A DNA stretch of 64,000 nt, from positions 39,743 to 103,742 of IMG/VR virus record IMGVR_UViG_3300048850_000064, one strand, 5' to 3'. Positions 1,259 to 61,755 of the stretch are shown here, one piece after another. A program made the translations under genes and the position numbers. Position 1 is the stretch's first letter. Each line of letters starts with the position of its first letter. This DNA comes from a virus. Taxonomy: Duplodnaviria > Heunggongvirae > Uroviricota > Caudoviricetes. Below the pieces are notes generated by a model that did not search any database, was not told where the DNA came from, and saw nothing but the letters and a program-made list of their open reading frames with translations.

Positions 1259-1408
1259 TCTTCAGTAGCCGACGGCGCCCCGTTTGCCGTTCTCCAGGGC
1301 GCCGTCACTTCGACCGCTTTCTCCTTCGGGCGGTCGATCAAGCGGGGCGGTGCGACAGGTATCTCGTTCGCGCCGCCCCTTGCTGTCTCAAGCACTGAGG
1401 ATTTCCGG

Positions 1409-3552: not shown

Positions 3553-3565
3553 AAGGAGATTTGAA

Positions 3566-25474: not shown

Positions 25475-25574
25475 AGCCATGAGTTACCAGCCGAGTTCCA
25501 AGACTGCTTTTGCTATATCGATACTGTGAACAGCAAAGCGCAACGGCGCACGATACACGAAGGAGTGAAGTAAC

Positions 25575-26342
25575 ATGGCCGGAACTGCAGTAGCAACCAA
25601 GACGAAAACTGTCGCTGAACCGGAAGTCCTCGAGTCCATCCTCGACGACCTGGATCTCGATGATCTTCCAACCGAAATCGAGGCGCTCGACGAGGCCGTC
25701 GAGGAGGTCATCGTCGATGACGCCGAAGTCCTCGAGCATGAGGAGCTGCGCGACCTCGAGCTCGCCAGCGTCCGCGACGAGGCCTATGAGGAGCAGGAGT
25801 CGAAGGTCGACACCGCTGCTTCCGTAACCGAGACGACCGAGGCTGCCAAGAGCGCCAAGACGACGAAGGTCGTGAAGGCCAAGGCTGCCGGCGTCCCGCG
25901 CACCCCGCGCGTCGATCTCGCCTCTATGGATGCGTTCAACTTCATCCTCGAGGGCGACGCCGATTCCATGTCCGACGCGGACAAGGACGCGGCCAAGACC
26001 GCGACGCTGGCGCTGATGCCGAAGCAGAAGAAGATCGCCGAGAAGTTCGAGAACCTCTTCCAGGCGTTGAGCGCCGGCAAGCTGCCGTCGGTCTACGTGG
26101 TCCAGGCCTTCAAGCTGCTCGACAGCAAGAAGACCATGTCCTCGGCCGATCTCGTCGCCCACTTCAAAGGCTCTTACAAGCAGGGCACGGCGATGAGCCA
26201 GGCGGGGCAGATCCTCAACCTGTTCGACACGGTCAAGATTGCGACCCGGTCGAAGAACTCGCTGACATTGAATGCCGACAGCGTGCTCGCCGCGCGTATG
26301 CGCAATGCGATCGCCGCCTACGAGGCGAAGAAGGCCGCCTGA
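25575..26342 (+). CDS. Highly acidic hypothetical protein
   Basis: 255 aa, D/E-rich N-terminal half. Confidence 0.5.
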   Translation: MAGTAVATKTKTVAEPEVLESILDDLDLDDLPTEIEALDEAVEEVIVDDAEVLEHEELRDLELASVRDEAYEEQESKVDTAASVTETTEAAKSAKTTKVVKAKAAGVPRTPRVDLASMDAFNFILEGDADSMSDADKDAAKTATLALMPKQKKIAEKFENLFQALSAGKLPSVYVVQAFKLLDSKKTMSSADLVAHFKGSYKQGTAMSQAGQILNLFDTVKIATRSKNSLTLNADSVLAARMRNAIAAYEAKKAA

Positions 26343-27359: not shown

Positions 27360-27421
27360 TGTCGGAGGGAGCTATCTCCCTCCATTTTTCAACAGATACC
27401 ACCCGCTTTCCGAGCTCGCTT

Positions 27422-27457
27422 TTGCTATAACGCATATGTCAGTCAGTGATGACTGTA
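27422..27457 (+). promoter_or_regulatory. Promoter/operator signature (TTGCTATAACG + GTCAGTCAGTGATGACTGTA)
   Basis: Read directly. Confidence 0.55.
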
Positions 27458-27479: not shown

Positions 27480-27854
27480 ATGGGAGCTTGCAGCTTCTAC
27501 AGCTACGTCGAGCGCAAGGGTAAGCCTGCCGGCTTTAACGAGCGTGTCGAGCGCGGCGTTAAACATCTGACTAAGCGATACGAGAACTGGCCGAATACCC
27601 AAGAGGCCTTCCGGCACGCCCGCGATGAGGCTGCGCACGAAAGCGGCCACGGCGGCTACAGCGGCACGATCGCCGAAAAGAACGACTTCACACGGATCAG
27701 CAAGGTTGCGAGCAAAGCCGAGGCCTACGAGCTGGCGAGCCGCATGATCGAGAACGACGACAGGCGCATCGCTGACAAATGGGGTCCGGCTGGGTGCATT
27801 GAGATTGCCGGCGACGAAGGTGGCTGGCTGTTCTTCGGCTTCGCATCGTCATGA
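27480..27854 (+). CDS. Hypothetical protein
   Basis: 124 aa. Confidence 0.5.
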   Translation: MGACSFYSYVERKGKPAGFNERVERGVKHLTKRYENWPNTQEAFRHARDEAAHESGHGGYSGTIAEKNDFTRISKVASKAEAYELASRMIENDDRRIADKWGPAGCIEIAGDEGGWLFFGFASS

Positions 27855-33025: not shown

Positions 33026-33168
33026 TTTTGTTCCCTGTTTGTTCACTAGGACCATATTCCTAGATTTCAACATGGAACGTGTCAACTCTTGCCTGCACTA
33101 CCCAGCCGAAAGCCAACAGAATTTTTGCGATAGTGCATCATCGACAACGAAATCAGCGGAGCTGAGCG

Positions 33169-33549
33169 ATGCAGATTTGGACGAAAGAGCGGGTGCAGGA
33201 GCTTCTCAAGGTCAGCGACAAGGCCGTCGCCCGCGCCATCCTCGCACTCTATTCCCGACAAACGGCCTCGGAGCAGGCCGGCGAGCAGACCGATGTCGAG
33301 AACGGCGTCGGCTTCAACAAGATCGACGCGCCGTTCCTGTCGTCGATCGCCAAGGCCCTGCCCCGCTACAACAACCACATGACCGAGCGCCAGCTCAGGA
33401 CGGCGCGCAAGATGCTGCCGAAATACTGGCGCCAGCTCTGCGAGATCGCCAATGAGCGCGAGGCGCAGAAAGAGCCCTCGGTCGACCCGGTCATCGCCGC
33501 CCAAAAGATCCAGGAAGCGCCGGCCCGGCAGTTCGGCCGCTTCTCCTGA
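33169..33549 (+). CDS. Hypothetical protein
   Basis: 126 aa. Confidence 0.5.
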   Translation: MQIWTKERVQELLKVSDKAVARAILALYSRQTASEQAGEQTDVENGVGFNKIDAPFLSSIAKALPRYNNHMTERQLRTARKMLPKYWRQLCEIANEREAQKEPSVDPVIAAQKIQEAPARQFGRFS

Positions 33550-33554
33550 TTCGC

Positions 33555-33594
33555 CAGTCATTGCTGACTGATTGGGGCGGCTACGCTATAATCG
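33555..33594 (+). promoter_or_regulatory. Operator palindrome CAGTCATTGCTGACTG + CGCTATAATCG
   Basis: Read directly. Confidence 0.5.
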
Positions 33595-33617
33595 CCGTTT
33601 TCAATCAGGAGGTAATG

Positions 33618-33746
33618 ATGAAGAAGAATCCGGTCGCCAAAGCGTTGCGTTCGCCCCATCTGCGGACGCAAGCCGTCAAGCCGAAGCGGGGCCGTGGCTC
33701 CTACAATCGGAAGAGGAAAAAGCTTGAGAGGGAGTTCACGCCATGA
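33618..33746 (+). CDS. arfA: ArfA-like alternative ribosome-rescue factor
   Basis: AGGAGG RBS; NPVAKALRSPHLRTQAVKPKRGRGSYNRKRKK parallels ArfA [28 protein letters not shown]. Confidence 0.45.
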   Translation: MKKNPVAKALRSPHLRTQAVKPKRGRGSYNRKRKKLEREFTP

Positions 33747-33815
33747 AGCCGATGCTATAACACTCGCAAAGCGCGATTCGCGCGCCGTCGAGACCTCGCG
33801 GGTGTTGGATAGAAA

Positions 33816-34061
33816 ATGCTGGATGTAATCGCCCTCTATATGACCGTGCAGATCCTCGGCGGAGCCCATCCTGAGGTGAAAATGCTGCCTGGCAATTTCA
33901 TGACCGTCGAGCAGTGCGAAAAGCTCTCGGCCATGGCGAACAAGATGGCGCCAGAGGCCAAGTTCGACAAGGGCCGGCCGGTCATCCAGGAATATGCGGA
34001 ATGCGTGCCGGTCACGGATCTCGCGCTCGAGCAGGCAAACAAGGTCATCAGTGGCAAATAG
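33816..34061 (+). CDS. Hypothetical secreted/membrane protein
   Basis: Hydrophobic N-terminus. Confidence 0.45.
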   Translation: MLDVIALYMTVQILGGAHPEVKMLPGNFMTVEQCEKLSAMANKMAPEAKFDKGRPVIQEYAECVPVTDLALEQANKVISGK

Positions 34062-34062
34062 C

Positions 34063-34092
34063 AAAAAGGCCCGCGATTACGGGCCTTTACGG
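34063..34092 (-). terminator. Hairpin terminator (strong for minus-strand gene, weak bidirectional)
   Basis: GGCCCG-cgattac-CGGGCC; on minus strand followed by TTTTTGC. Confidence 0.55.
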
Positions 34093-34094
34093 GG

Positions 34095-34328
34095 TTAGGC
34101 GGCTATGTCGAGCGCCTCCTTCTCTATCGCTTCGGGCCAACGGTTGCCGGCGTAACAGATGACCTCGCGGGCGAAAATTGTCGAATCGGTTGAAAACTGC
34201 TTGAAATAGGTAATCCAGTCGGCCCTGATACCTTCCGTCTCGAAGAACTCATCCGCCGCGGTGAGTATGTGATTCTGGAACCGTTCGACCAAATCCTCGA
34301 ACGACAGATCCTGTTGTGACGTTGCCAT
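34095..34328 (-). CDS. Hypothetical protein
   Basis: 77 aa minus-strand ORF. Confidence 0.45.
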   Translation of the reverse strand: MATSQQDLSFEDLVERFQNHILTAADEFFETEGIRADWITYFKQFSTDSTIFAREVICYAGNRWPEAIEKEALDIAA

Positions 34329-34500
34329 TTCTTTCTCGCATTACCCCGCCTAGTGGTTGAACTTTTATTTTCAAGGGAAATTGCCGGCACGGGGAAATTC
34401 ATCCTCGGGTCTCGCCGTCCGGTGCTACCGTCGATACGTAATCAGTTCGGATTAGGCAAGCGGATTTTTAGGGTTTTTAAACGATTTGCGACACCCCGCG

Positions 34501-34528
34501 AGTCAGTTGCTATAACTCTATTGTGACT
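34501..34528 (+). promoter_or_regulatory. Promoter signature AGTCAGTTGCTATAACTCTATTGTGACT
   Basis: Read directly. Confidence 0.45.
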
Positions 34529-34559
34529 TGAAAACGAATACCCGAAAAAGGAAGAAATT

Positions 34560-34877
34560 ATGAATAATGAAGCGCCGTCGTTCTTTTCACTTACACAGGG
34601 AACGCCGGCCGAGAATGTTGCCGAGCTGGGCGAGGTGACCTGTGGCGTGGTGCTCACACCCGACGGCTCCTTCCGGGTCTTTGCCAGCGGTATCGATGCC
34701 ACGGCGCTTGCCGGCGACGATCTCACCGTTGAGCAGGAAGCTCAGTTGGAGATGGGTCGTAAGCTGACAGCGCTTACATTGGCGCTTTCCAACGATCAGG
34801 TCATGGCCGTGTTACTCGATTTGGCCGGCAATCCTGATCTTGACCTGGAGAGCCTGACCGATGTCCCAGTCCACTAA
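34560..34877 (+). CDS. Hypothetical protein
   Basis: 105 aa. Confidence 0.5.
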   Translation: MNNEAPSFFSLTQGTPAENVAELGEVTCGVVLTPDGSFRVFASGIDATALAGDDLTVEQEAQLEMGRKLTALTLALSNDQVMAVLLDLAGNPDLDLESLTDVPVH

Positions 34878-35286
34878 GACCTTGCGCGAAATTCTGCTCG
34901 AAAGAGGCGGGCGCGCCCGAGCCCTCGATCCCGACGACGTCATGGAGACGATCCGCGACTTCCTGAAGGAAAGCCCTGAAGGTGTCGAGGAGCTGGCGCC
35001 GGGTATGGTGCTGAAGCCGAAGCCGCTCACCCGTGCCGCCCAGATCGGCAAGATGCACACCGCGGCGCTCGAGACGCGCCGCAAGCAGACGAAGGAGCGC
35101 TATGCCGAGCTGGTGCCGGTGGTGCAGGGCGCAATCGACGCCAATCCGAACATCACGCTGCGGCAGATCGCCGAGCTGCTCAACGACCGCGGCTTCAAGC
35201 CGGCGCGCGCGGCCGAGTGGACGCCCGGCACGGTCAGCTTTCTCATAAAGAATGCAGGAATAAAATATGAACCGCCTGAGACTTGA
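34861..35286 (+). CDS. Hypothetical DNA-binding-like protein
   Basis: C-terminal ITLRQIAELLNDRGFKPARAAEWTPGTV resembles recombinase-domain HTH. Confidence 0.4.
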   Translation: MSQSTKTLREILLERGGRARALDPDDVMETIRDFLKESPEGVEELAPGMVLKPKPLTRAAQIGKMHTAALETRRKQTKERYAELVPVVQGAIDANPNITLRQIAELLNDRGFKPARAAEWTPGTVSFLIKNAGIKYEPPET

Positions 35287-35503
35287 ATACGCCGCGGAGG
35301 CCTTCCTCGCCGGCATGAGGAAAGAATTCCTGAAACACCACCCGGGCCAGGACTGTCCGATCCGGGAATTTCGCGACTATACGCCAAGCGACCGCAGCAT
35401 CCTGATGCGCGCGGTCCTGGCGACGGCGACTGCGGTCAGCCCCGAACATGACGAGGCATTCTCCAAATGGCTCGAGCGCCGCCCGGAGAATGCGGCCGCC
35501 TGA
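35267..35503 (+). CDS. Hypothetical protein
   Basis: 78 aa. Confidence 0.4.
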   Translation: MNRLRLEYAAEAFLAGMRKEFLKHHPGQDCPIREFRDYTPSDRSILMRAVLATATAVSPEHDEAFSKWLERRPENAAA

Positions 35504-35571
35504 AATAACCGACCGACTTCCTTCTCTGTCAGCGCTATAGTCAGTCATGAATGAGTTGATAGGAGACGCGC

Positions 35572-35733
35572 ATGATTTTCCAGATGCTGTTTAACCAGGC
35601 ATTCGAGGCGGGCAGGATCCGCATCGTGCGCAAGCCCGACAGTTCCTACAGCATGCAGGTGCGCGTCTTTGGCGCCTGGTTCGGCATCGCCAACATCAAG
35701 GAATACGAGGTGAAAGAGAATGAGCGCCTATAA
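35572..35733 (+). CDS. Small hypothetical protein (53 aa)
   Basis: Hand-translated MIFQMLFNQAFEAGRIRIV...; downstream of promoter motif 35532-35555. Confidence 0.3.
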   Translation: MIFQMLFNQAFEAGRIRIVRKPDSSYSMQVRVFGAWFGIANIKEYEVKENERL

Positions 35734-35968
35734 CATCATCAAGGCGATCGAGGCCGAGGCTGTGACGCGCCGGCAGGAGGACAAGTCCGACGCCTACGAG
35801 CTGCGGATCCTCTTGCGCTGCGGCCGCGAGATTCGCTGCAGTCAGCATCGATCCGACTCCTACTTCCTCAAGGTCGAGGAGCTCGAGGATCACCTCGGCC
35901 TGCCGGTCAACCGGATCGCCTACCTGCCCTATGAGGCGATCGACAAGGTGGTGCCGAAATGGCTCTGA
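35720..35968 (+). CDS. Hypothetical protein
   Basis: 82 aa. Confidence 0.45.
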   Translation: MSAYNIIKAIEAEAVTRRQEDKSDAYELRILLRCGREIRCSQHRSDSYFLKVEELEDHLGLPVNRIAYLPYEAIDKVVPKWL

Positions 35969-36435
35969 CGGGTAAGAGTTTCAGCGGCCTGATCGTCGAC
36001 GAGTTCGACGACAAGACGGGGCTGTTCAAGCATGTCGGCGAAATCTTCGGAGCGCCACGCGGCGGGTTTACCCATTTCTGGCTCGACGAGTGGTCGAGCT
36101 TTTCCAAGGACATCTTCAAACTGGATCTGGACTGCGTCGCCACCTTCGAGGACGAGCGCGTGCCGGACGCTACGGTTAAGATCTACGAGAAGGGCTTCGA
36201 CAAGCACGATCCGCGTCATCCGAATCCGGCTGCCGGTCATCGGTCGACGAAAGCCTACACGCTCAAATGCGGCGACAGGCAGATCGGCGCGCCATTCGGC
36301 AATCTGCAGGCTGCCAAGATGAAGGCGAAGACCCTGCACGAGCGCATGGTCGAGGAGGTGCTGGCGCTGCGGCGCGAACAGGAGCTTGAAAAGCTGGCGA
36401 GCCAGGCCAGCAATCCGAAATTTGGGATGTTCTGA
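35959..36435 (+). CDS. Hypothetical protein
   Basis: 158 aa. Confidence 0.5.
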   Translation: MALTGKSFSGLIVDEFDDKTGLFKHVGEIFGAPRGGFTHFWLDEWSSFSKDIFKLDLDCVATFEDERVPDATVKIYEKGFDKHDPRHPNPAAGHRSTKAYTLKCGDRQIGAPFGNLQAAKMKAKTLHERMVEEVLALRREQELEKLASQASNPKFGMF

Positions 36436-38148: not shown

Positions 38149-38294
38149 AGATCCGTTGCGACAACTGCAACTGGACTGGCCGAGACGGTGATCTCACCGA
38201 GGCCGAATGCTGCCCGCGATGCTTCGAGAAAACCTATTTGCGCCTGCACTGCTCGCCGGCGCCGCTTCCCGCTCATCCGCCGCTAAGTGCCTGA
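38145..38294 (+). CDS. Zinc-ribbon peptide
   Basis: CDNCNW...CCPRC; ATGA overlap. Confidence 0.45.
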   Translation: MKIRCDNCNWTGRDGDLTEAECCPRCFEKTYLRLHCSPAPLPAHPPLSA

Positions 38295-38473
38295 TATTGC
38301 CAGCCGAATACCAATTCTGAACGCGCTAAATTGAATTATCGAAAGCGCGAAAAGGAGACACACATGCAATGGATCGCAAAGCTGCTGCCTGATGGCTACT
38401 GGTGGAACGGCATCGAAGTCAAAGGCACCTGGCGTCCCTATTACCGCGTCGGCCGTGCCGGCAACTGCCTGCG

Positions 38474-41561: not shown

Positions 41562-41717
41562 ATGATTATGCGCCAGCGCGTCACCACGCGCACGCCCCGC
41601 CAGAAGCCGGAAGTCAAGTTCGAGGCACGCCCGAAAAAGCGGCCGACGGACTATGCTGCCGTGGCGAAGGATCTGATCAAGCGCTACCCGCAGGTGATGG
41701 CGCATCTTGCCAAATGA
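41562..41717 (+). CDS. Putative antitoxin of Doc (Phd-like role, 51 aa)
   Basis: Hand-translated MIMRQRVTTRTPRQKPEVKFEARPKKRPTDYAAVAKDLIKRYPQVMAHLAK; ggag RBS; overlaps doc start by 11 nt. Confidence 0.35.
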   Translation: MIMRQRVTTRTPRQKPEVKFEARPKKRPTDYAAVAKDLIKRYPQVMAHLAK

Positions 41718-42117
41718 GCCTATCTGGCTGCCCAGGCAAGCCGTAATAGACATCAACCGTGAAGTTGTCGAGGCGACAGGGGAGAATCACGCTCTCCTGT
41801 TTCCCGACAAGCTTGAGAGCGCCCTCGCCCGGCCCATCAACGCCTATTTCTACGAAGAGACCTATGACGTGGTCTCCCTTACGGTGAACCTCATGGTCGC
41901 GATCGGCCAGGCGCACGCCTTCGAGCAAGGCAACAAGCGCACCGCGTTCATCTCCGGCCTCGCCTTCCTCGGCGACAACGGCTACGCCTTCGTCCACCCC
42001 GACACCACCCCGTTCGCCATGGATATTGAGGCGGTCATCACCAGGGAAATGTCACCTGGCGAGTTCGAGGAATATTTCGCTCACTGGGTCGTGCCGCTTC
42101 CCGAGGACGAAGACTGA
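41707..42117 (+). CDS. doc: Doc (death-on-curing) family toxin, Fic fold
   Basis: HAFEQGNKRTAF matches Doc/Fic H-x-F-x-D/N-G-N-K-R motif; TTG start. Confidence 0.7.
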   Translation: MPNEPIWLPRQAVIDINREVVEATGENHALLFPDKLESALARPINAYFYEETYDVVSLTVNLMVAIGQAHAFEQGNKRTAFISGLAFLGDNGYAFVHPDTTPFAMDIEAVITREMSPGEFEEYFAHWVVPLPEDED

Positions 42118-42193: not shown

Positions 42194-43123
42194 ATGCCGC
42201 TCCGGATCGAGCCGTGCGTTCCGCTTCTTGCCAAGGAGGCGCCACGGGGCGACCGCTGGATCCACGAAATCAAATGGGATGGTTATCGGGTGATGGTGCA
42301 TATCCAGCCCGACCGCGTCCGCATCCTTTCCCGCAACGGCAACGACTGGACGAAGCGCTTTCCCTCGATCGTCGCGGCCGCGGAGAGCCTGCGCCCTGCG
42401 ACCATGATCCTCGACGGCGAGGCCGTGGTGCTCGACGAGCAGGGCAGATCGGATTTCGGGCTGCTGCAGCACGCGCTGGGCGGCCAGGGCGGCAAACGCA
42501 ATGCCGGCGCTGCTCTCCTCTACGCCTTCGACCTGCTTTATCTGAACGGGCACGATCTGCGGCCGCGCCGGCTGCGGGATCGCCGAATAATGCTCGAGGA
42601 GGTTTTGCACGACCAGCAAGGCGCCATCCTTCTCTCCCAGGCTACCGCCGGCGATGGCCCTGCCCTCTTCGAGGCGGCCTGTGACCATGGGCTCGAGGGC
42701 ATCGTCAGCAAGGATGTAACCAAGCCCTATCACTCCGGTCGTTCAAACGACTGGCTCAAGATCAAATGCGTCCAGCGCGACAAGTTCCTGATCATCGGCT
42801 ACGAGCCATCCGCGGCGCTACCGACGGCGATCGGCCGGCTGCTCCTGGCCGCCCGGAAAGGCGACCAGCTCGTCTATGTGGGCAGCGTCGGGACGGGATG
42901 GAGCAATCGCATGTCCTTCGAGCTGAAACAGCTCCTAGACCTCATCCACGCCGATGAGAAACCGGTCGCGCATCGGCGCAAGGGTGCGATTTTCACCCAG
43001 CCGCTGCTCGTGGCCGAAATCGAATACCGCGCCTGGACCAAGGACAACAAGCTGCGCCACCCCTCATTCAAGGGCGTCGACCAGGCGACGGAAGAGGTCG
43101 AGATCTACAGCCTCGGCGAATGA
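42194..43123 (+). CDS. ATP-dependent DNA ligase (LigD/LigC ligase-domain type)
   Basis: Motif I EIKWDGYR, III LDGEAVV, IV EGIVSK, V WLKIK. Confidence 0.75.
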   Translation: MPLRIEPCVPLLAKEAPRGDRWIHEIKWDGYRVMVHIQPDRVRILSRNGNDWTKRFPSIVAAAESLRPATMILDGEAVVLDEQGRSDFGLLQHALGGQGGKRNAGAALLYAFDLLYLNGHDLRPRRLRDRRIMLEEVLHDQQGAILLSQATAGDGPALFEAACDHGLEGIVSKDVTKPYHSGRSNDWLKIKCVQRDKFLIIGYEPSAALPTAIGRLLLAARKGDQLVYVGSVGTGWSNRMSFELKQLLDLIHADEKPVAHRRKGAIFTQPLLVAEIEYRAWTKDNKLRHPSFKGVDQATEEVEIYSLGE

Positions 43124-43143
43124 CTATCCGCACGATGCCAGCC

Positions 43144-43169
43144 GCACGCCACGTCAGCCTGTGAGATTG
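43144..43169 (+). promoter_or_regulatory. Class-2 promoter-like motif GCACGCCACGTCAGCCTGTGAGATTG
   Basis: Family members at 44638, 47076, 48248, 48637. Confidence 0.4.
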
Positions 43170-43574
43170 TAAATCATCAACAGAGCGAACGAACGAGAGC
43201 GAGCGCAGCGACAAATGACCTGGAATTACTGACGCGGGTGGCTCCCGCCGAACTAACAGCCCGGCCCGGATAAAGCCGTCATCCCACATACGGTAGGCGT
43301 AGCTGATACAGAGGCAGGCGATGGAGCCGGAAGCCTCGGCACGCTGATCCCGATTGTCGCCCACTCACTTAGAGATCCGGGGTGAAATTTCTGCCTGTAT
43401 GCCTCACAGGGTCCGGCTAGACCGGCCGTAGGTGTTGTCACAGTGAATGCCGCTTGAGTGCTCACGATCCACTCCTAGATCCGTATCCCGCTGCCTTTTG
43501 ATGCCGACGCAAGCACGAAGGAGTGATGACGGTGCGGAGTGTGATCAATGAACACTCGGTAAGGAGAGACGCCG

Positions 43575-43865
43575 ATGACCAATTATCTCCGCAAAATGCT
43601 GAACGCCGCTTCCGGCGAGGGCTTCAAGTTCGAGGTTCAAGGAGGCGGTGACGAGGCCGACTATATCGGCCATCACCCCGCCGGCGCCGAGGAGGCTCTC
43701 GTTGCCGTGGAAGAGGCCGAGCTGATCCTCTTCGATGCCGAGGGCAAGAAGGTGGCATGGGCCTTGATCCTGCCCGGCCTGGCACCCGACGAGGTCGTCG
43801 CCGATTGCGGCGCCGGTGACTGGATCGATAAATGGTGGAGCCGGAACGCCGTAGCCGCGGCTTAA
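43575..43865 (+). CDS. Hypothetical protein
   Basis: 96 aa, ggagag RBS. Confidence 0.5.
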   Translation: MTNYLRKMLNAASGEGFKFEVQGGGDEADYIGHHPAGAEEALVAVEEAELILFDAEGKKVAWALILPGLAPDEVVADCGAGDWIDKWWSRNAVAAA

Positions 43866-44113
43866 CCCGGCCTGGTAGCAAAAGGCGTGGAACTTTACCT
43901 CTATTACGTGCGTTCCACCGCTGCCGGCAAAACCCCTTGAGCCGGCGCGACGGCATGTCTCTTGCCTGTCGACAGCCGGGAGCGAATGCGCTGACCTCGC
44001 CTGCTGCTCCCGGCACCCGCCGCTCTCAATCCTTCAGTTACCGACCGATCTCCAATCGAGCCATTGCTATAACGCAATCATCGAAAGTAAAGCGCACTGC
44101 GCAGGAGAGATAG

Positions 44114-44359
44114 ATGGAAAACCTGGTGAACGAAGCGGTTATCGAACCGGAAGACGGTTTCTCGTTCGACGCATACGAATTCTCAGACAACCTTGAGCCC
44201 CTCACCAAACGCGCCAGTGACGAAGGCGAGCACTTTCCGGCCATCTTCTTCCGAAATCGCTCTACCGGAATGCTCTACGTCGCCAAGCGCATGACGCTGG
44301 TCAAGGGTGACCAGTCGGACGGCTCAAGCAATTGGGAAATCGTCGTCGATATCGAGTGA
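44114..44359 (+). CDS. Hypothetical protein
   Basis: 81 aa; GCTATAACG motif at 44064. Confidence 0.5.
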   Translation: MENLVNEAVIEPEDGFSFDAYEFSDNLEPLTKRASDEGEHFPAIFFRNRSTGMLYVAKRMTLVKGDQSDGSSNWEIVVDIE

Positions 44360-44637
44360 CCGCTTCGGCCTCGAGGCGAAATCGGCTATCCAGGCTCGAA
44401 CGCTGAGAAGGGCCTGACAACGCGCAGCCGGCGGTCGTGTTGGTCATAAACAACACCGGCAGTCAGGGGCACCTGGGTCGTTTCTGCCCAAACGCTGACC
44501 TGGCCCGAGGGGAGTGGGAGGGTGTTGCCGCACCCTCCCCTCGGTTCCCTATAGAGAGCCATGGCGCGGCAATGCCACAATCTTCCACGGATAAATTGTG
44601 CCATCCGTGCCCTGCAGTTACCAACCGAACGCCGTTG

Positions 44638-44653
44638 CAGCCTGTGCGATAAG
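44638..44653 (+). promoter_or_regulatory. Class-2 promoter-like motif CAGCCTGTGCGATAAG
   Basis: Read directly. Confidence 0.4.
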
Positions 44654-44688
44654 AGAGCATCAGCAACGCGAGAGCACCGAGAACAGCG

Positions 44689-45009
44689 ATGACCGCACGC
44701 ACCTACGAACTCTACATCAGCCGCGACGCCGACTCGCACACGACCGACCACGACATCTTCTGCCTGCTCTCCGAGTTCCTGGCGCAGCCAATCCTGGCGA
44801 CAGGCTCGGGCACCGGATGCGGCACGCGCGATCTTGATTTTCGCCTCGAGGCCGATCTGACCGAGGTCCAGGTCGTGGATCTGCAGTGCCGGATCCGCAA
44901 CCGCTGCGAAGACGAGACCATCGACGTCATTTACGAGGAATGGCCTGAAGGCAGTGGTCATGACGAGCCGATCATTGCCTATTACGGCGACGGAGCGCTG
45001 ATCGCATGA
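44689..45009 (+). CDS. Hypothetical protein
   Basis: 106 aa. Confidence 0.5.
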   Translation: MTARTYELYISRDADSHTTDHDIFCLLSEFLAQPILATGSGTGCGTRDLDFRLEADLTEVQVVDLQCRIRNRCEDETIDVIYEEWPEGSGHDEPIIAYYGDGALIA

Positions 45010-45215
45010 CCGGCTTCACCTGCCGCGGCTGCGAGAAATCCGACAGACTCTATGAAGACAGCCACGGCGTCTTCTGTGGGCGCTGCGGCCCCTCGGTCGG
45101 CGTCAAGAACAGCGCCTTCAAGATAATCTGGTATGCCGGCTTGACCGTCGACCAGGAAGGTAAGATCACTCACTACGGGCCGGACGGCGCCGGCGGACTG
45201 AGGAAGAAGATATGA
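45006..45215 (+). CDS. Zinc-finger small protein
   Basis: CRGC...CGRCG. Confidence 0.45.
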   Translation: MTGFTCRGCEKSDRLYEDSHGVFCGRCGPSVGVKNSAFKIIWYAGLTVDQEGKITHYGPDGAGGLRKKI

Positions 45216-45454
45216 CCAGACAGAAGGTAGCGCCGGTCGAAATCTACAAGGTGCTGAAACGCGCCCTGGACAACGGCACACTCGATCGCGACCATCTCTC
45301 GAGCCTAGCCAGGGAGATCTCCGACCTGCCACTCTCCACAGTGGAGGACGAGGAAGCCACAATGGCCGTCGTCGCTGCGGAGATGAAGGATATTGCCAAC
45401 GAGCTCGACCTCAAGGTCGTGATCAACGGCCGCATCTACCCGGAGACACCATGA
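45212..45454 (+). CDS. Hypothetical protein
   Basis: ATGA overlap. Confidence 0.45.
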   Translation: MTRQKVAPVEIYKVLKRALDNGTLDRDHLSSLAREISDLPLSTVEDEEATMAVVAAEMKDIANELDLKVVINGRIYPETP

Positions 45455-45663
45455 CCATCTACACCATCCACGCCGACGGCGACGCCAACTTCTACACCAT
45501 CCTCAAGGACAAGAACTGGTTCGCCCGGATTCAGTTCAACGGCGAGCTCATGGTCGAGCGCCAGGAGGAAATTGCCAAGCTCATCGCCAACGTCTTAACT
45601 GACCAGGAGACCGAGACCATGCTGCGCGAGCGCGGCTTTGCACTACCAAAGGAGAGACTATGA
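45451..45663 (+). CDS. Hypothetical protein
   Basis: ATGA overlap. Confidence 0.45.
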   Translation: MTIYTIHADGDANFYTILKDKNWFARIQFNGELMVERQEEIAKLIANVLTDQETETMLRERGFALPKERL

Positions 45664-45875
45664 CCCAATACCGCGTAAGCCTCGAGATCACCGTCGAGGC
45701 CGAGGATCCGCAACAGGCCGCCCTCGAAGCCTACAAGCAACTGGCGACCGAGGAGCTGCCGCTCACCTACTCGGTCAAGGATCCGGCCTCGAGCGCCACG
45801 GACGTCACGCTCAAGAGAGACGAGGCAGACGAATACGCCGGCATCGATATGCCGCCCTTAGGCTTCATGGGCTAA
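45660..45875 (+). CDS. Hypothetical protein
   Basis: ATGA overlap. Confidence 0.45.
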   Translation: MTQYRVSLEITVEAEDPQQAALEAYKQLATEELPLTYSVKDPASSATDVTLKRDEADEYAGIDMPPLGFMG

Positions 45876-46845
45876 GCCAGCACCTCTGCCGTGGCGTCTA
45901 CAACAGGTCCACTTCCGGTCAGGCCAGAAAGACCATAGTTTACGCCACGGACAACAGATTTTATCAAGCCACTTGAACCATCAAGTGAATAACCAGCACC
46001 AAGGTTTTCCGCGGGTTTACCTCCCAACACCCGCAAAATCATTTCAGCAAGCGTCAACCCGTCTGACCCTGCAATCAAAACAGCGCTCATTTCGGCCAGG
46101 GAAGCTCCAGGGCTCGATCCGACACTCTCCGACGTAGAACGACGCAGAAAACTCGCAAACGCTCACCAGCGCGCTCCCTAGAGAGAAAACACGAAAGCAA
46201 TAAGGAACGAAGGCCAGTAAGGGCGAATAGATATCCAGAGAGCACCGGACCTATAGAGCCCGACAGCAGCAAGCGCATAAGGGAGCACCACGGTCATAGA
46301 GAGCAACAGAGAGCCCATGGACCTATAGAGCCACGGTTATAACCAATCCGCGAGAAAGGTAATAACGAGAGAGGGGATATGTCAGAGAGGTGTGTCTGCG
46401 CGGGAGGTTCCGCGCCACGCCTCACCCACATCCCGACCCCTCGCCCCTGTCCACCCCTTCCCTCGCCTGACCACGGACACCCTGAAGCTCCCGCCCTTCG
46501 CCTGTTTCATCCCATCGCGAACAAAGCTATACAGAGCATGAGACGAGCGCTTGTGTCCGAAGCAGCTCTTTCCGGCCGATGTCATTGTCCAGCCGGAACT
46601 CTTGGAAGCGTTGCAACCATCCAGGCGGACAATGGGTGCACCTTGGCCGGGCTCCTCGACAGAGGATGCTCGGCTTCTTTTTGGCGATTCCAGGAACCAA
46701 GGCGTATAGAGCCCCAGCGATCGGCCCATGGGTTGAGCCCGTGCCGGACCATGGTCGACCGAGGTGAACCGTGGTCTTTCTGATCGACCGCGGCTGACCA
46801 TGGAGTGCCGGAGATCGTTACGCCTGCGAAACGAAAATCCGGGAG

Positions 46846-46897
46846 CGTTTTCGTATAATACTATCTACTATCTAGGTATCTAACATCTATACGAAAC
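46846..46897. repeat. IR-flanked AT-rich element (CGTTTTCGTATA-N30-TATACGAAAC)
   Basis: Second copy at 61617-61671. Confidence 0.6.
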
Positions 46898-47075
46898 CAA
46901 GGCGAAAAAGAGTCTGGATTAAGACAGGCTCGCCACATTCTCCCTGGCTCATTCTCCGGCACTGACCACCCTTCCCGGCCCTATAGAGAGCCCATGGTTC
47001 ACCATGGCGTGCCGGCCGCGGCTCCCAGCCGTGCCTCGCCTTGCCGGAGCTCCGATTTGCCTGCCCTTGCCGTTC

Positions 47076-47126
47076 GCACGCCACGACAGCCTGTGCGATA
47101 CAGATCATGTCAGCAATGACTGACAG
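47076..47126 (+). promoter_or_regulatory. Class-2 motif GCACGCCACGACAGCCTGTGCGATACA followed by operator palindrome TGTCAGCAATGACTGACA
   Basis: Read directly. Confidence 0.45.
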
Positions 47127-47147
47127 CAACGCTCACGAAGGAGAGAC

Positions 47148-48008
47148 ATGATGAGCAAGCGCAAGATCAAGACCATCGAGCACGCCGTCGAAGTGATCGA
47201 ACAAGACACCGCCCCGGTTCTCGAGGGCGACAGCACCTATCTGACGCTCGAGGACCACAAGGCGATCATGGCCGACTACGAAGAGTTGGCAGCCGCCGAC
47301 GTTGCGACCGTCGCCGCCCTCGAGGCAATCGAAGAGGCTGTTGCCGAGCAGTCCGAGGAAGCGCCGGCCGGTGAGCCGGATCATCAGCCGAGCCTGCTCG
47401 AGCTCGTCGCCTCGGTCGAGCAGGATCCGGAGGATCTCGACACCGCCCGCAAGCAGGTCGCTGCCGCCTTCGACACCCGGGCAGACTTCGAGCGCAAGAA
47501 GAACCCGGACAACGAGTCGATCCAGACGAGCCTGAAGAAGAGCCGGGCGAAGCTGACCCAGGGGCGCTCGGTGGCGATCCTGATGTCGGCGGGTGCCGCA
47601 CCCGACTTCATCACCCGGTCGACGAATGAAGGCTCCGCCTACAACGTCTACGCGGCCGACAAGGTCGCCGACCTCGTCAACGCCTTGAACTCCGGCGTGA
47701 TCGGCAACGCCATCAACAACGCCGTCTGCCGCTCGCTCTTCAGGTTCCGGGCCGCGGGCGAGGCCTTCACCGGCGAGATGGCGCGTGCCGCAGCGTCCGA
47801 CAAGCTGCGTGTCCAGGGCACGATCGCCAAGCTGCTCGTCCGGCACACGGTGTCGCCGTCGACCGCACCGACCCAGGCGTCGTCGACGATGCAGGCACTG
47901 CAGACGCTCGGCATCGTCAAGAACACCGGCACGACGCGCGCCCCGGTCTATGCACTGACCGACAGCCCGGCAGCAAAGCGGCTCGAAGCCGTCGTGATGG
48001 CCGCATAA
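47148..48008 (+). CDS. Hypothetical protein (286 aa)
   Basis: gaaggagag RBS. Confidence 0.55.
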   Translation: MMSKRKIKTIEHAVEVIEQDTAPVLEGDSTYLTLEDHKAIMADYEELAAADVATVAALEAIEEAVAEQSEEAPAGEPDHQPSLLELVASVEQDPEDLDTARKQVAAAFDTRADFERKKNPDNESIQTSLKKSRAKLTQGRSVAILMSAGAAPDFITRSTNEGSAYNVYAADKVADLVNALNSGVIGNAINNAVCRSLFRFRAAGEAFTGEMARAAASDKLRVQGTIAKLLVRHTVSPSTAPTQASSTMQALQTLGIVKNTGTTRAPVYALTDSPAAKRLEAVVMAA

Positions 48009-48294
48009 CAAGAGGAGGATGAAGAAAGAGGCTCGCTTAGGCGGGCCTTTTTCGTGTCTGGCACGGGACCATGGCTTGCCCTGGCGCGGTTGCTAGGAAC
48101 CTTGGGCTTCCGTGGGCTCCGCCGACTGGAACCACGGGCGAGGAACCAAGACAGGCCCACCATAGAAAGCCGGTCCAGGCAGCCCGAGGCGGACCATGGC
48201 TCGCCGGGGCGTCGGGGAAGCCTCGAGATGCCAGCCGAGTGCCGTTCGAGCCTGTGCGACAGTTCTCATGCGTCAAGTGACGAGGAGACGAGAC

Positions 48295-48513
48295 ATGCGC
48301 CTGCCCGAATACGTCCACGAAGCCAACGTCGCCGGCCTCGAGCAGGCCAATGCCAAGCCGGTGAAGAAGACGCCGCGGCCCGACAACTGCCCGGAGCCCG
48401 CCTGGATCGCCCAACGCATCCGCGAGCTCGACGGCAATCTCAGCGCCCAGGAAGCCCTGTTCTACGCCCTGCCGCTCGAGGTGCAGGACGAGGTCTGGAA
48501 GCACCTGGCCTGA
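48295..48513 (+). CDS. Hypothetical protein
   Basis: gaggagacgagac RBS; class-2 motif at 48248. Confidence 0.45.
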   Translation: MRLPEYVHEANVAGLEQANAKPVKKTPRPDNCPEPAWIAQRIRELDGNLSAQEALFYALPLEVQDEVWKHLA

Positions 48514-48684
48514 CCCAGGAACCAGGCGTGCTCCGGCGCTCCTGGTTGCTCTTCCGGGCGACAGCGACCGTGGCAGACCATGGCGGGCCGCGGCTCCCGC
48601 CTGAAGCGTTGCCTCGAGATGCCACCCGACTGCCTCTGAAGCGCGTGCGATGACAGTGATGCAACGTAAACAAGAGAGAACGAC

Positions 48685-48840
48685 ATGACCTACGAAGTAG
48701 TCGAATACAAGAACGGCCAGCGCAAGGTGCACCTGTCGACAGACGACCGGTTCGAAGCGCGCGACGAGTTCAGGTGGCTCGAGGACCGCAAAGAGCAGCA
48801 CGACGCGACCATGGGCACGATCAAGATCGAGACGAAGTGA
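48685..48840 (+). CDS. Small hypothetical protein (51 aa) MTYEVVEYKNG...
   Basis: Hand-translated; class-2 motif at 48637. Confidence 0.35.
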   Translation: MTYEVVEYKNGQRKVHLSTDDRFEARDEFRWLEDRKEQHDATMGTIKIETK

Positions 48841-48847
48841 GGTGAAG

Positions 48848-49192
48848 ATGACCTACGAAGAAGCAGCCGCGGTCAAGACGCTGACCAGAGAAGAGATCGG
48901 ACAGCTCTGGTCCGCCTACTATGGCATCATACCGAACACCGAGGTAGATGACGGCATCGCTACTCCTTGGCGTCGCACCATGCTCGAGGCACTGATTAAG
49001 ACGGCGCCTCTGAGTTACAGGCGTGCGCTGGTGAACGTCGAAGGTAACGAGTTCACAGGCTTCTTTCCGTGGAAAGACGAACGCGACAACGACCGGCTCG
49101 TGCAGATCGCGATCGCCGACAACGACGAGACCTGTATGTGCGACGCAGAGGTCTCTGACTGGTCCTGGTATCTCTCGTCGAAAATCGACTGA
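48848..49192 (+). CDS. Hypothetical protein (MTYEEAAAV...)
   Basis: Shares MTYE start with upstream small gene. Confidence 0.45.
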   Translation: MTYEEAAAVKTLTREEIGQLWSAYYGIIPNTEVDDGIATPWRRTMLEALIKTAPLSYRRALVNVEGNEFTGFFPWKDERDNDRLVQIAIADNDETCMCDAEVSDWSWYLSSKID

Positions 49193-49527
49193 AGCAAGGC
49201 GAGCTCCGGCTCGCCTTTCGCATGACCGGAATCAGCCATGGTCCGGTCTGGTCCCGGCCAGGCCAGGCGGTCCCGTGGCAGCCAGGCCAGGAACCAAGCG
49301 CGTGCGACCACGGTCTTTCGGCACCCAGGCACCCCGCGGCCCTACCATGGCGCGCCCTCCCCTACCCTCAACCTCGGCAACCCATGGCTCGGCGGCTCCC
49401 GCCGGAGGCTCAGCCTGCGGCCGTAACGCGCCGTCACTTGCCGACCGAGCGCCTGATTTCAGCGTGCAATAGTGTTTTCGTGCTTAGACGAAAGCACGAA
49501 AGCAACGCTAATCAGGAGACAACGAAA

Positions 49528-49803
49528 ATGCTCAAGACCTCGACCCGCTTCTCGCCCTCGATCGTTCGCGCCGCTGAAGAGCTCGAAGCAGCCTGCGCGC
49601 TCTTCCAGATCTCGCCGAACTCGAAGCATGCCGAGTATCAGCCGACTCACAGCGACATGCTCAGGCACTGCTTCCGGCACGCTGCCGGCTTCGTCTCGCC
49701 CCTCGGCGAGAAGTCGATGGCACTCGTCGGCGAATGCATGCAGGCGCTCAGAGACGAACGCGTGCGCTCATTCGCCATGAAGCGCGCAGCACTCGCTGCC
49801 TGA
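49528..49803 (+). CDS. Hypothetical protein
   Basis: caggagac RBS; preceded by IR TTTTCGTGCTT-agacg-AAAGCACGAAAG. Confidence 0.45.
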   Translation: MLKTSTRFSPSIVRAAEELEAACALFQISPNSKHAEYQPTHSDMLRHCFRHAAGFVSPLGEKSMALVGECMQALRDERVRSFAMKRAALAA

Positions 49804-49820
49804 CGCGCCGGAGAGATCAG

Positions 49821-50000
49821 ATGAACCAGATCTTCGTTCCGGCAATCGACTTCAGCTCAGCGCGCGAAAGGCGCGCTGCAGCCGAGCGTGCGGCCAAGGT
49901 CAAGCGCCGGCAGTTCATCAAAGAGGTCGTAATCGACATCGTCGGCCTTGGCTGTCTCGCCTGGTGCGCCTACGTCGCGATCGACCTCGCCCTCTTCTAG
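49821..50000 (+). CDS. Small membrane protein
   Basis: ggagag RBS; C-terminal TM. Confidence 0.4.
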   Translation: MNQIFVPAIDFSSARERRAAAERAAKVKRRQFIKEVVIDIVGLGCLAWCAYVAIDLALF

Positions 50001-50167
50001 TCGACCAGGAGCTCGCCGGGGCTAGGAACCGGTGGGCTCCAAGGGAGCCGCCGGGCGGCCGGCAACGCCAGGAACCGACCGCGGCATTTCCAGGAACCGG
50101 CACATCCACGGCTCACCATGGCTCCTACCGCGGCTCCCGCGCCACGCGCGGGCCGCGCGCCTCGCTC

Positions 50168-50212
50168 GTAGTTACGCTTCGCGTGCTCGTCTGCGCTTCA
50201 AAGCGTAACTAC
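50168..50212. repeat. 12-bp inverted repeat GTAGTTACGCTT-N21-AAGCGTAACTAC at left edge of low-GC island
   Basis: Read directly. Confidence 0.6.
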
Positions 50213-50614
50213 ATCTCTAGCGCTCAATACGCGCGCAACATGCGAACGACGTCTATTTCGTCTCGCTTATAAACACGCGCTGTATAGCGCATATTACGAT
50301 TGTCTAAATAAGCAGCGATTTGTGCTTTCGCTTGCTTGCGCGCGCGCTCACGTTCACGCTTGCGTCTGACAGTTTCTGTCACGTCGATCGATGATTTAGA
50401 CATTGCTAAATCTTTCGCGCTGACGTCTGTAATAAGCGCTCATGCGCTTGCGCTTGTCGCGCTCACGCAATGCGCGTCGAAGATCGTTGTTTGCTTTGCG
50501 CGTGTTAAGCAGCGCTGCTTTCAATCTCAGATATATTAGCATGTTCTTGAATCTCGCTTTCGAGTGAAACGAAAGAATGACGCGCTGCAGAGCGCGTCAT
50601 TCATAAGTGACTGA

Positions 50615-51205
50615 TTATTGAGCGTAACGTTCAAGAATCGCTTGTGTCAGTTTCGAGTCTGTATTGAGCGCGTAAACGTCTTTCGTCGACGTTTCGCGCA
50701 AGATATCGAGTGCACACAATGCTTTCAAAGACATCGATGCTTGACGTTTTGCAGCGCTCACGATTGTTTCGCGACGTGAGATATACTTTTCTCTTTCTTT
50801 CGCGACTTCAATCGCTTTGTCTTTCTTGCTTGTGCACGACGCGTAAGCATCGTTGCGCGTCATCGTGAGACTATCACGATGCAGATTGATTGCAGTTTCA
50901 AGCACAGTTCTTGCATTGTCTGTCTTGATATTAGCAACTGCTTTGAAAGCGAACTGCAGATAATCTGCAGTTCTAGCAATCGCTTTCATGCAAAACTTCG
51001 AATTTACATTCTCGTAAGCGTTGATGAATGCAGAGCTCATGTCTTGCTGCGCAAGCAGCGCGACGAATTGTGTGCTCGCATAGACTTGCTTTGCTTTCTT
51101 CAACAGAGCAATTGATGCATCGCATGCAGTTGCTTTCTCTTGCGTCTCGAAAGCGATACGAGTTTCGATAGCAGCGACGAAAGAGTTTACAGTTTCGTTT
51201 GTCAT
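50615..51205 (-). CDS. Hypothetical alpha-helical protein encoded in low-GC island
   Basis: 196 aa minus-strand ORF; local GC ~45% vs ~62% elsewhere. Confidence 0.5.
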   Translation of the reverse strand: MTNETVNSFVAAIETRIAFETQEKATACDASIALLKKAKQVYASTQFVALLAQQDMSSAFINAYENVNSKFCMKAIARTADYLQFAFKAVANIKTDNARTVLETAINLHRDSLTMTRNDAYASCTSKKDKAIEVAKEREKYISRRETIVSAAKRQASMSLKALCALDILRETSTKDVYALNTDSKLTQAILERYAQ

Positions 51206-51783
51206 TGTCTTGTCTCTCTTGTTTAACGTTGACTGTTTTATTGTTGTTTCATTCTGTCATGTCGCGCAAAGCGCAAAGCGCTTGCGTCGAAGATGATCTA
51301 TTCAGTTGTCAAAGAGCGCTGCATTTCTGCAGTGACTCTTTCTTCGCATGTTTCTGTGTGAGTCGTCAAGTGACTTTATGCGCTTGTGACTTAAAATATG
51401 TGCTTTTCTGCGATAGCGTTTAGTTCGCTCATAGAGACGCATAGACGCGCGTTCTTGCTTGTGTGTCGCGAGATACTCACTTGTGCGTCTATCGCGCTCT
51501 ACGCGCTTGTGTGTGCGATTGTGCGTCTATCGCGTCTGTCACTGTCATTGCACGTTGCTTGCTTGTCATCGTCGCGCTGATCGTCGCGCGCTCGACATGA
51601 TCGACGCCCGATCCCTCCTAGAGAATTAGCGAAGTCTTAGAAAATGCGACGTGACGTGATCCGGATGCCGCCTGTCACCCTCGTCTCCCCGGTTCCTATC
51701 CACCTCTGTCTGTGGGCTGCCCAGGAAGGTCCGGATCTTTGCGGTGGATCGACGGATGGTTGGTTGCTTGGTGGTTGATGGTG

Positions 51784-57562: not shown

Positions 57563-57616
57563 CGTCTATTCTTGCTTTCGTGCTTTATTGCGGGCCTTGC
57601 CTAGTGCTTCATACGT

Positions 57617-57648
57617 GATATATAGTCAGTCATCAATGACTGACTGAG
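57617..57648. promoter_or_regulatory. Divergent promoter region with palindrome TATATAGTCAGTCATCAATGACTGACTGA
   Basis: Between minus helicase gene and plus 57657 gene. Confidence 0.55.
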
Positions 57649-57656
57649 GATTTACC

Positions 57657-61606: not shown

Positions 61607-61616
61607 GATCCGGATC

Positions 61617-61671
61617 CGTTTTTCGTATAGATATTAGATTCTAACTAATAACTATATTTATACGAAAACGC
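61617..61671. repeat. IR-flanked AT-rich element (CCGTTTTTCGTATA-N28-TATACGAAAACG)
   Basis: Paralog of 46846-46897; upstream of terminase genes. Confidence 0.6.
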
Positions 61672-61755
61672 TTCCGGATTTTAGTTCAACCTTGAACATT
61701 CTCCGGCACGAAAAGGCTGCGAGGGTTGAGAATAGGACTTATCCGGTTTAGGATG

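Follow-up and report, generated by a model that had tools for sequence, protein, structure and literature searches.

The 64,000-nt window analysed here (positions 39,743 to 103,742 of the IMG/VR virus record IMGVR_UViG_3300048850_000064) is part of a large siphophage-type phage-plasmid, and its 43-49.5-kb small-gene block carries a repeated promoter-like motif, referred to below as the box promoter. The plus strand carries the genes up to about 50 kb, and the gene content is that of the RHEph10-type family: a gp32-like single-stranded DNA-binding protein (SSB), RecA, a metallophosphoesterase, an SbcC-like exonuclease, rIIA/rIIB-sized genes, RtcB, an ATP-dependent ligase, ParA-like and ParB-like proteins and a large terminase. 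Distant relatives include the Rhizobium phages RHEph10, RHph_N1_10, RHph_Y2_11 and RHph_X66, as well as B1VFA and V1VFA-S (terminase ~65% identical), and plasmids of ~115-120 kb from Pararhizobium, Rhizobium, Sinorhizobium (pLM21S1), Methylobacterium and Shinella are also related (PMC4447125). No close relative of the window was found in phage or plasmid collections, and megablast of the block against phages and plasmids returned only a 216-nt conserved non-coding segment and plasmid-borne helicase, ParA and Doc genes.

A first-pass annotation had described five related copies of one motif, 35-50 bp upstream of start codons, as a promoter class distinct from the GCTATAA/palindrome promoters of the same genome. 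The five copies are present at 43144 (GCACGCCACGTCAGCCTGTGAGATT), 44638 (CAGCCTGTGCGATAA), 47076 (GCACGCCACGACAGCCTGTGCGATAC), 48248 (GAGCCTGTGCGACA) and 48637 (TGAAGCGCGTGCGATGA), and repetition on this scale is far beyond chance. The long shared consensus was overstated: the full 24-mer occurs with at most three mismatches only at 43145 and 47077 (0.00 expected), and the other copies have in common only its 3' 13-mer, AGCCTGTGCGATA, with 0, 1 and 3 mismatches. Of all five copies, four have this core with 0, 0, 1 and 2 mismatches and the fifth (48640) has it with 3; in the window it matches 5 times at up to two mismatches (1.43 expected) and 30 times at up to three (16 expected). The fifth copy (48637) is not significant by itself and was accepted because its upstream half validates it. 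An upstream segment reported for two of the copies does occur exactly twice (CCTCGAGATGCCANCCGANTGCC at 48221 and 48612, 0 expected), 1-2 nt away from the coordinates first assigned to it, and the segment CCTCGAGATGCCAnCCGAnTGCC likewise has exactly two occurrences. Searching IMG/VR with the exact 14-mer CAGCCTGTGCGATA was uninformative, yielding at least 120 single chance matches and no multi-copy contig.

When the five upstream regions were aligned, they and the GCTATAA promoter at 44031 fell into one ungapped 41-nt register (family D1). The element is bipartite, of fixed spacing and strand-specific, with the form CC(-39/-38) N2 CCG(-35..-33) N4 CC(-28/-27) N12 TGC(G/T)A(T/C)A, in which an upstream half, CC-N2-CCG-N4-CC, covers 13 bp from about -39 to -27 and an extended -10-like half, TGC(G/T)A(T/C)A, follows at an exactly constant distance. 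These six sequences were turned into a weight matrix, which, when scanned over both strands of the 64 kb at a 12-bit threshold, found five new sites (25477, 27389, 33092, 35499 and 38290); a sixth, 49431, was added later, and beyond these sites neither strand had any further match of at least 12 bits. The window contains at least 12 box promoters, all on the plus strand and all in intergenic gaps (Table 1), and the 12 sites sit 32-57 nt before start codons with Shine-Dalgarno sequences. In the column table, C -48, CC -39/-38, CG -34/-33, CC -28/-27, G -14 and A -11 are invariant, while C -35, G -20, T -15, C -13, T -10 and A -9 are nearly so; A -11, G -14, C -34 and G -33 are each found in 11 of 11 sites, C -13 in 10 of 11 and TG at -15/-14 in 9-11 of 11. 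The -35 triplet is CCG in 10 of the 12 sites, and position -12 has T where the -10 half is GCTATA and G in the five copies first described. The skeleton CCNNCCGNNNNCC-N12-GCNA has 10 matches, all on the plus strand, against 0.42 expected, a post hoc and partly circular comparison, as the skeleton was derived from the same sites.

Table 1. Putative promoters and associated elements of the window (window coordinates)
Feature	Position	Strand	Context
Box promoter, GCTATAT -10	25477..25517	+	Gene 25575-26342 downstream
Box promoter, GCTATAA -10, with downstream palindrome	27389..27429	+	Gene 27480-27854 downstream
Box promoter, GCGATAG -10	33092..33132	+	Gene 33169-33549 downstream
Box promoter, GCTATAG -10, with downstream palindrome	35499..35539	+	Gene 35572-35733 downstream
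Box promoter, GCTAAAT -10	38290..38330	+	ATG 38364 downstream
Box promoter, copy 1 (CCGCACGATGCCAGCCGCACGCCACGTCAGCCTGTGAGATT)	43128..43168	+	Just past ligase stop codon (43123); would drive the non-coding element, no protein gene
Conserved structured non-coding element, candidate ~390-nt RNA	43172..43560	+	From invariant AATCATC(A/G)A to long helix CTTGAGTGCTCACGATCCACTCC...GGAGTGTGATCAATGAACACTCGG
Box promoter, GCTATAA -10	44031..44071	+	Same register as the five copies; gene 44114-44359 downstream
Box promoter, copy 2	44611..44651	+	Five-gene small-ORF operon 44689-45875 downstream
Box promoter, copy 3	47060..47100	+	Sole window copy with T at -35 (TCG, not CCG); gene 47148-48008 downstream
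Imperfect palindrome TGTCAGCAATGACTGACA	47108..47125	.	Just past -10 of the 47060 promoter; member of the AGTCAGTCATnnATGACTGACT family
Intrinsic-terminator-like hairpin AGGCTCGC-TTAG-GCGGGCCT, then TTTTT	48029..48052	+	Ends unit 47148-48008; read directly from sequence
Box promoter, copy 4	48221..48261	+	Gene 48295-48513 downstream
Box promoter, copy 5, degenerate -10 region GCGATG	48612..48652	+	Genes 48685-48840 and 48842-49192 downstream
Box promoter, -10 GTGCAATAG	49431..49471	+	Gene 49528-49803 downstream

Sequence logic and comparison give good support to the promoter interpretation, in line with what had been proposed for the five copies: the position of the elements, their strict strand bias, the fixed bipartite spacing, the housekeeping-like -10 half, the terminator that ends one unit and the retention of the element in distant relatives are all promoter-like. 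A weaker hairpin follows 49192. The proposed distance of 35-50 bp to a start codon needs correction. In four copies the last A of GCGATA lies 37 (44638), 47 (47076), 33 (48248) and 32 nt (48637) before a start codon with a Shine-Dalgarno sequence; this does not apply to 43144, after which the ATG at 43216 opens only a 5-codon open reading frame (ORF) and the next real gene starts at 43575. The proteins downstream of the five copies belong to no family in Pfam or PHROGs and are ORFans. The window scan found no upstream box without a -10 half at the exact fixed distance, and the structural-gene regions, in the window past 49.5 kb and in RHEph10 at 1-35 kb, yielded no box promoter. None of these sites is detected by a generic sigma-70 promoter scan, because the -35 is non-canonical. 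At 49471-49527, the 5' untranslated region (UTR) that follows the 49431 promoter contains a 9-bp hairpin, TTCGTGCTT-AGACG-AAGCACGAA, before the Shine-Dalgarno sequence of its gene.

The separation from the GCTATAA/palindrome class does not hold in the form proposed, given that the promoters at 44031, 25477, 27389 and 35499, whose -10 halves are GCTATA(A/T/G), have the same upstream box in the same register, and that a palindrome follows the -10 in 3 of the 12 box promoters (27389, 35499 and 47060, the last being the best of the five copies, 47076, with an imperfect palindrome). The five copies thus appear to be members of a family-wide CCG-box promoter class rather than a self-contained one. 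The palindrome AGTCAGTCATnnATGACTGACT has 6 matches in the window (5808, 11991, 37143, 55554, 57624 and 63757) against 0.01 expected, and its half-site 36 against 9; degenerate copies lie near 18046, 22692, 27437, 35539, 47108, 51784 and 61764. It sits just past -10 elements or just ahead of start codons, on both strands, and promoters with a degenerate or host-like -35 mostly have it (5848, 10864, 18040, 22685, 31055, 37125, 55582 on the minus strand and 57617). This contrast with the box promoters is real but only suggestive, as the site list was assembled by eye. In RHEph10, the orthologous palindrome, AGTCAATCAATATTGATTGACT, is found in most structural-gene spacers. The palindrome could be a dispersed repressor operator, like that of C1 in P1, or an RNA hairpin in 5' UTRs, the latter because it also stands directly before the start codons of late genes.

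Further similarities within the window come in pairs of promoters: those at 43128 and 47060 have CGCACGCCACGnCAGCCTGTG in common, those at 48221 and 48612 CCTCGAGATGCCA plus upstream GACCATGG segments, and those at 44031 and 44611 CCTnCAGTTACCnACCGA. Only this window has the AGCCTGTG signature and the longer shared segments; CACGCCACG, AGCC and CCTCGAGATG are absent from the relatives. The AGCCTGTG, CACGCCACG and CCTCGAGATG signatures look like the product of local duplication or recombination of promoter cassettes at 43-49.5 kb and not like a separate recognition code.

Using the matrix trained on the window sites only, we scanned 62 related loci (~900 kb), gathered via homologues of a 286-aa protein, of the phage sigma factor described below and of the RNA element downstream of 43144. 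It gave 51 unique matches on the gene strand against 4 on the opposite strand and 2 in locally shuffled sequence. The -35 triplet was CCG in 43 of 55 matches and TTG or TCG in 6 of 55. The core CC-N2-(C/G)CG-N4-CC-N11/12-GC(G/T)A is kept even at marker-protein identities of only 30-50%; typical -10 halves are (G)TGCGA(C/T)A and GCTAT(A/T), and there is no conservation from -24 to -16. Judging by their records, these relatives have hosts that include Rhizobium, Faunimonas and Methylocystis, and in RHEph10 the box promoters would serve rIIA and the gene after the polymerase gene, among others.

Copy 43144 would drive not a protein gene but a conserved, covarying non-coding RNA. The plus strand of the element has no ORF of at least 50 aa, and there is no credible gene in 43124-43574; Rfam had no match anywhere in the window at gathering thresholds, nor any in 43100-43620 at E<=10, and ARAGORN found no tRNA or tmRNA. 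Within the 8-kb block, this element alone is similar to known phages at the nucleotide level. It occurs in all ten RHEph10-type Rhizobium phage records, nearly always in an unannotated gap, and in 17 IMG/VR contigs, in each case behind a box promoter; a plasmid search gave no match. Thirteen relatives have an orthologous box promoter immediately upstream of the point where conservation of the element begins, at AATCATC(A/G)A, as expected of a transcription start. Indels in the element are not multiples of three. In a 15-sequence alignment, 45 pairs in 7 helices were paired in 94.1% of cells against 86.2% in shuffles (0 of 500 reached this value) and ~38% when partners were slid. Double changes, with both partners altered, were present in 54 cells (18.4 in shuffles), and the plus strand is favoured by conserved G-U pairs. 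Support for the structure comes from covariation only, because the fold of the single sequence is no more stable than that of shuffles (z = +0.87). Some relatives have a second box promoter after the element, which argues for an independent unit and not merely a leader. We consider it a candidate new family of structured RNA.

The relatives also encode a sigma factor that might read these promoters. RHEph10 gp045 is a 211-aa sigma-70-family protein (Pfam Sigma70_r2, E = 1.4e-8) with a weak match to an ECF (extracytoplasmic function) superfamily model and a conserved C-terminal helical domain that includes the invariant ITT..VF.LM.A.R.ERTKI. The top Foldseek matches of its AlphaFold model (pLDDT 67.5) are all sigma factors, over ~250 aligned columns, and a sequence search of the PDB gave only a marginal RpoS match. 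Homologues are found in exactly the 10 phage records that also have the 286-aa protein, the RNA element and the box promoter, and in 24 IMG/VR contigs as well. In all annotated relatives, the sigma gene lies in a CobT-CobS-sigma-DNA polymerase operon. We place this operon just upstream of the window, because the genes with which the window opens, those of SSB and RecA, come after the sigma-polymerase operon in RHEph10.

The promoter of the sigma operon is the same element with T at -35 in 8 of 8 lineages (TTG in 6, TCG in 2) and never CCG: six lineages have TTTGTA or TTTGAA there and two have TTCGCA or GTCG, at sigma identities of 33-100%. A palindrome follows it in 7 of the 8 lineages, L160 being the one in which none was identified. 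Past the DNA polymerase gene, the next promoter is of the CCG type without a palindrome in every lineage. In the window, the sole box promoter with T at -35, 47060, also has the palindrome. From its -35 we infer that the sigma-operon promoter would be host-readable. Before the sigma operon, in RHph_X66 (1170-4223) and RHEph10 (33311-35987), there is a divergent region with RepC, a CopG-like protein and a small gene on one strand, a gene for an XRE-family helix-turn-helix protein on the other and palindromes between them; it is likely to be a lysis/plasmid-maintenance switch, just outside the window.

Taken together, these data lead us to favour, tentatively and as something a little short of probable, a reading in which the five motifs are copies of a phage-specific promoter of a delayed-early or middle class, read by RNA polymerase carrying a phage sigma factor. 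We infer from the comparisons above that the sites are transcription starts, that the sigma factor reads them and when they would act. Transcription is predicted to start 6-10 nt past the -10 half, for example within 43172-43179. The CCG promoters would need a specificity factor supplied by the phage, for which the sigma of the CobT-CobS-sigma-DNA polymerase operon is the likeliest candidate. Host SigA polymerase would first read the T-type promoters, including that of the sigma operon, so that sigma is made; the phage sigma would then switch on the CCG-type promoters, and with them the RNA, the small-gene block and further non-structural operons, including several of nucleotide metabolism, which would form a delayed-early or middle set. 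In its full form this proposal is bolder, and we regard it as possible but somewhat doubtful: the CCG-box elements would be the regulon of a divergent phage sigma that recognizes CCG plus the flanking CC at -35 in place of TTG, with the -10 remaining host-like, in a two-tier switch (host-read palindrome promoters, then sigma-read ones) of RHEph10/pLM21S1-type phage-plasmids. One member of this regulon would be an undescribed ~390-nt structured RNA kept throughout the family. The suggestion in the first-pass annotation that a different sigma factor or activator is involved is plausible in the light of the relatives, with the dividing line drawn elsewhere, between T-type and CCG-type promoters.

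Several points weigh against the assignment to a phage sigma. The model of the sigma protein is only moderately confident, its gene lies outside the window, upstream of the SSB and RecA genes (299-4651), and its co-occurrence with the motif is confounded by common ancestry. Late genes are often what a phage sigma serves, and no late promoters of the RHEph10-type family were identified here. The palindrome could be an RNA hairpin instead of a DNA operator. The TTG-type promoter of the sigma operon also retains the flanking CC pairs, which may thus be read by something common to both types. Host SigA alone might read the box promoters as an early class with an extended phage consensus, recognizing the TG and GC(T/G)ATA while the CCG and CC tune strength or DNA shape; T4 early promoters likewise have conserved positions beyond the Escherichia coli consensus. 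In favour of this explanation, the -10 half matches the housekeeping -10, the TG at -15/-14 might suffice even with CCG, the CCG lies exactly at the TTG position of the TTG variants with an 18-nt spacer, and the regulated genes, small ORFans without family matches, are typical of early host-takeover genes. Furthermore, R. etli SigA is lax in promoter recognition and tolerates deviant promoters and long spacers (PMC4943231). Selection for strength should nevertheless favour TTG, yet C -34 and G -33 are universal among the window sites and CCG prevails in the relatives across different host genera. Elsewhere the same phages do have a TTG-type -35, in the sigma-operon promoter and in that of ParB (57563-57656), and the conservation of the TTG/CCG split by orthologous position argues for a functional difference. 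Recognition by SigA alone seems to us less likely, but a serious alternative.

In another arrangement, SigA would recognize the -10 half, and an activator encoded by phage or host would bind the box and replace -35 recognition, as with MotA/AsiA at T4 middle promoters or regulators of the OmpR/PhoB type at tandem direct repeats. Within the box, nnCC(A/G) occurs twice, at -41..-37 and -30..-26 (for example TTACCA...TTCCAA and TGCCG...TTCCG); the 11 bp between the two units put them on one helical face, and a third CCG lies between them. Since these flanking units persist in the sigma-operon promoter of TTG type, they would suit a factor other than the one that reads the -35 triplet. No candidate activator was identified, although no search was aimed at MotA or AsiA homologues, and the CenR motif TGA-N8-TGA does not match; the unvarying spacing to the -10 half is more typical of a single protein that reads both halves. 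We consider an activator improbable. It is far less probable still that the motif is no promoter at all but acts as an RNA signal in 5' UTRs or is bound by proteins of replication, partition or packaging. Other repeats (CCATGG spacers, palindromes) abound in the block and phage-plasmids have ParA/ParB functions, but the motif lacks internal complementarity, is strictly oriented with the genes at 32-57 nt from start codons and has an invariant A -11; moreover, conservation at the RNA locus begins just past the motif and not within it, and the upstream box never stands alone. Phage sigma recognition thus remains the reading that we prefer.

Other repeats and islands were observed around the box promoters. 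Of the 27 CCATGG sites of the window, 15 fall in 44360-50200 (5.8 kb), in GC-rich spacers upstream of box promoters, often inside (C/T)ATAGAG(A)GCC(C)ATGG units (44549, 46251, 46295, 46323, 46705, 46981 and 48161) that are accompanied by AGGAACC and GCGGCTCCCGC repeats and keep no fixed register with the promoters. A 1.2-kb stretch without a credible ORF (45876-47059) is dense in CCATGG-type, AGGAACC and GCGGCTCCCGC repeats and had no match in phage records. Two AT-rich elements, each with ~33 AT-rich bases between the arms of an inverted repeat, CGTTTT(T)CGTATA...TATACGAAA(A), lie at 46840-46900, in this long non-coding stretch, and at 61615-61675, upstream of the terminase region. At 41602-41986, the window has 82% nucleotide identity to Sinorhizobium medicae plasmids in a region annotated as a type II toxin-antitoxin Doc-family toxin, and a plasmid-style addiction module would thus adjoin the phage ligase gene. 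An AT-rich island at 50200-51700 (GC 0.52 against 0.61 elsewhere, AT skew reversed) encloses a minus-strand ORF without a Pfam match (50615-51205, 196 aa) and looks like a foreign insertion or a regulatory region.

Full-text searches found no publications on transcription in RHEph10/pLM21S1-type phage-plasmids, only genome descriptions. Phage-specific promoters are well known, and the box promoter motif alone is ordinary in kind; the structured RNA attached to it is the most novel item and a concrete new object of study. A promoter consensus and a testable sigma-cascade model would allow the ~115-kb genomes of this family to be divided into transcription units and regulatory tiers, and the consensus would indicate which ORFan genes switch on together with the non-coding RNA. 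The promoter/sigma pair might also supply orthogonal parts for Rhizobium engineering.

Among known promoter types, the closest host counterparts are the alphaproteobacterial housekeeping promoters of SigA/sigma-73, for which consensus sequences of CTTGAC-N16-23-TATNNT in R. etli, CTTGAC-N17-CTATAT (cTATat) in S. meliloti and TTGACGS-N10-14-GCTANAWC in C. crescentus have been compiled (PMC4943231, Table 3). The -10 half GC(T/G)A(T/C)A(A/T)C overlays GCTANAWC/TATNNT, the distance to the start codon is typical and the CCG lies exactly where SigA promoters have TTG, with an 18-nt spacer. Box promoters differ from them in having CCG for TTG, so that no CTTGAC/TTGAC is present at -35, in two extra invariant flanking CC pairs, in G for T at -12 in the five copies and in their unvarying spacing. 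Given the CCG at the TTG position and the host-like -10, they would be sigma-70-type promoters with a replaced -35. Other assignments were considered and rejected. A displaced -35, CTTGCC/GTTACC at -43..-38, would need a 25-nt spacer (16-23 in R. etli), and its T is unconserved in the relatives. As judged by eye, sigma-54 promoters (TGGCAC-N5-TTGC; GG -24 and GC -12, 10 nt apart) agree in the TGC at -15..-13 only, the columns 11-12 nt upstream being variable, and neither block of ECF promoters (GGAAC-N16-17-CGT) appears in the column table, the relatives having CCGCAAT and not GGAAC. Among OmpR-family response-regulator sites, the CenR motif does not fit either.

In P1, C1 operators are dispersed over the genome, and late promoters consist of a -10 and an inverted repeat that needs Lpa. 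The present family resembles P1 in being a phage-plasmid with ParA/ParB, in having one palindrome dispersed at many promoters and in a second promoter tier without the palindrome; it differs in that its palindrome may be an RNA hairpin, in the lack of sequence similarity and in a second tier that would be non-structural and not late. T4 middle promoters combine a MotA box at -30 with a sigma-70 -10, AsiA remodelling region 4 of sigma. The sequence and extent of the box are different here (13 bp, -39 to -27), but in both cases a host-type -10 is kept, a phage-specific box at a fixed distance replaces the -35 and delayed-early/middle genes would be found among small ORFs. Promoter classes read by phage sigma factors include the middle (gp28) and late (gp33/34) promoters of Bacillus phage SPO1, those of phiEco32 gp36 and the late promoters of T4 gp55. 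The box promoters resemble none of these consensus sequences, their -10 half is host-like instead of novel, and the tie between sigma and motif is here a proposed one. They are like these classes in that the family has its own sigma-70-family protein, with a gene that appears to lie behind a host-readable promoter, and in that a consensus distinct from that of the host, with fixed spacing, is kept within the phage family.

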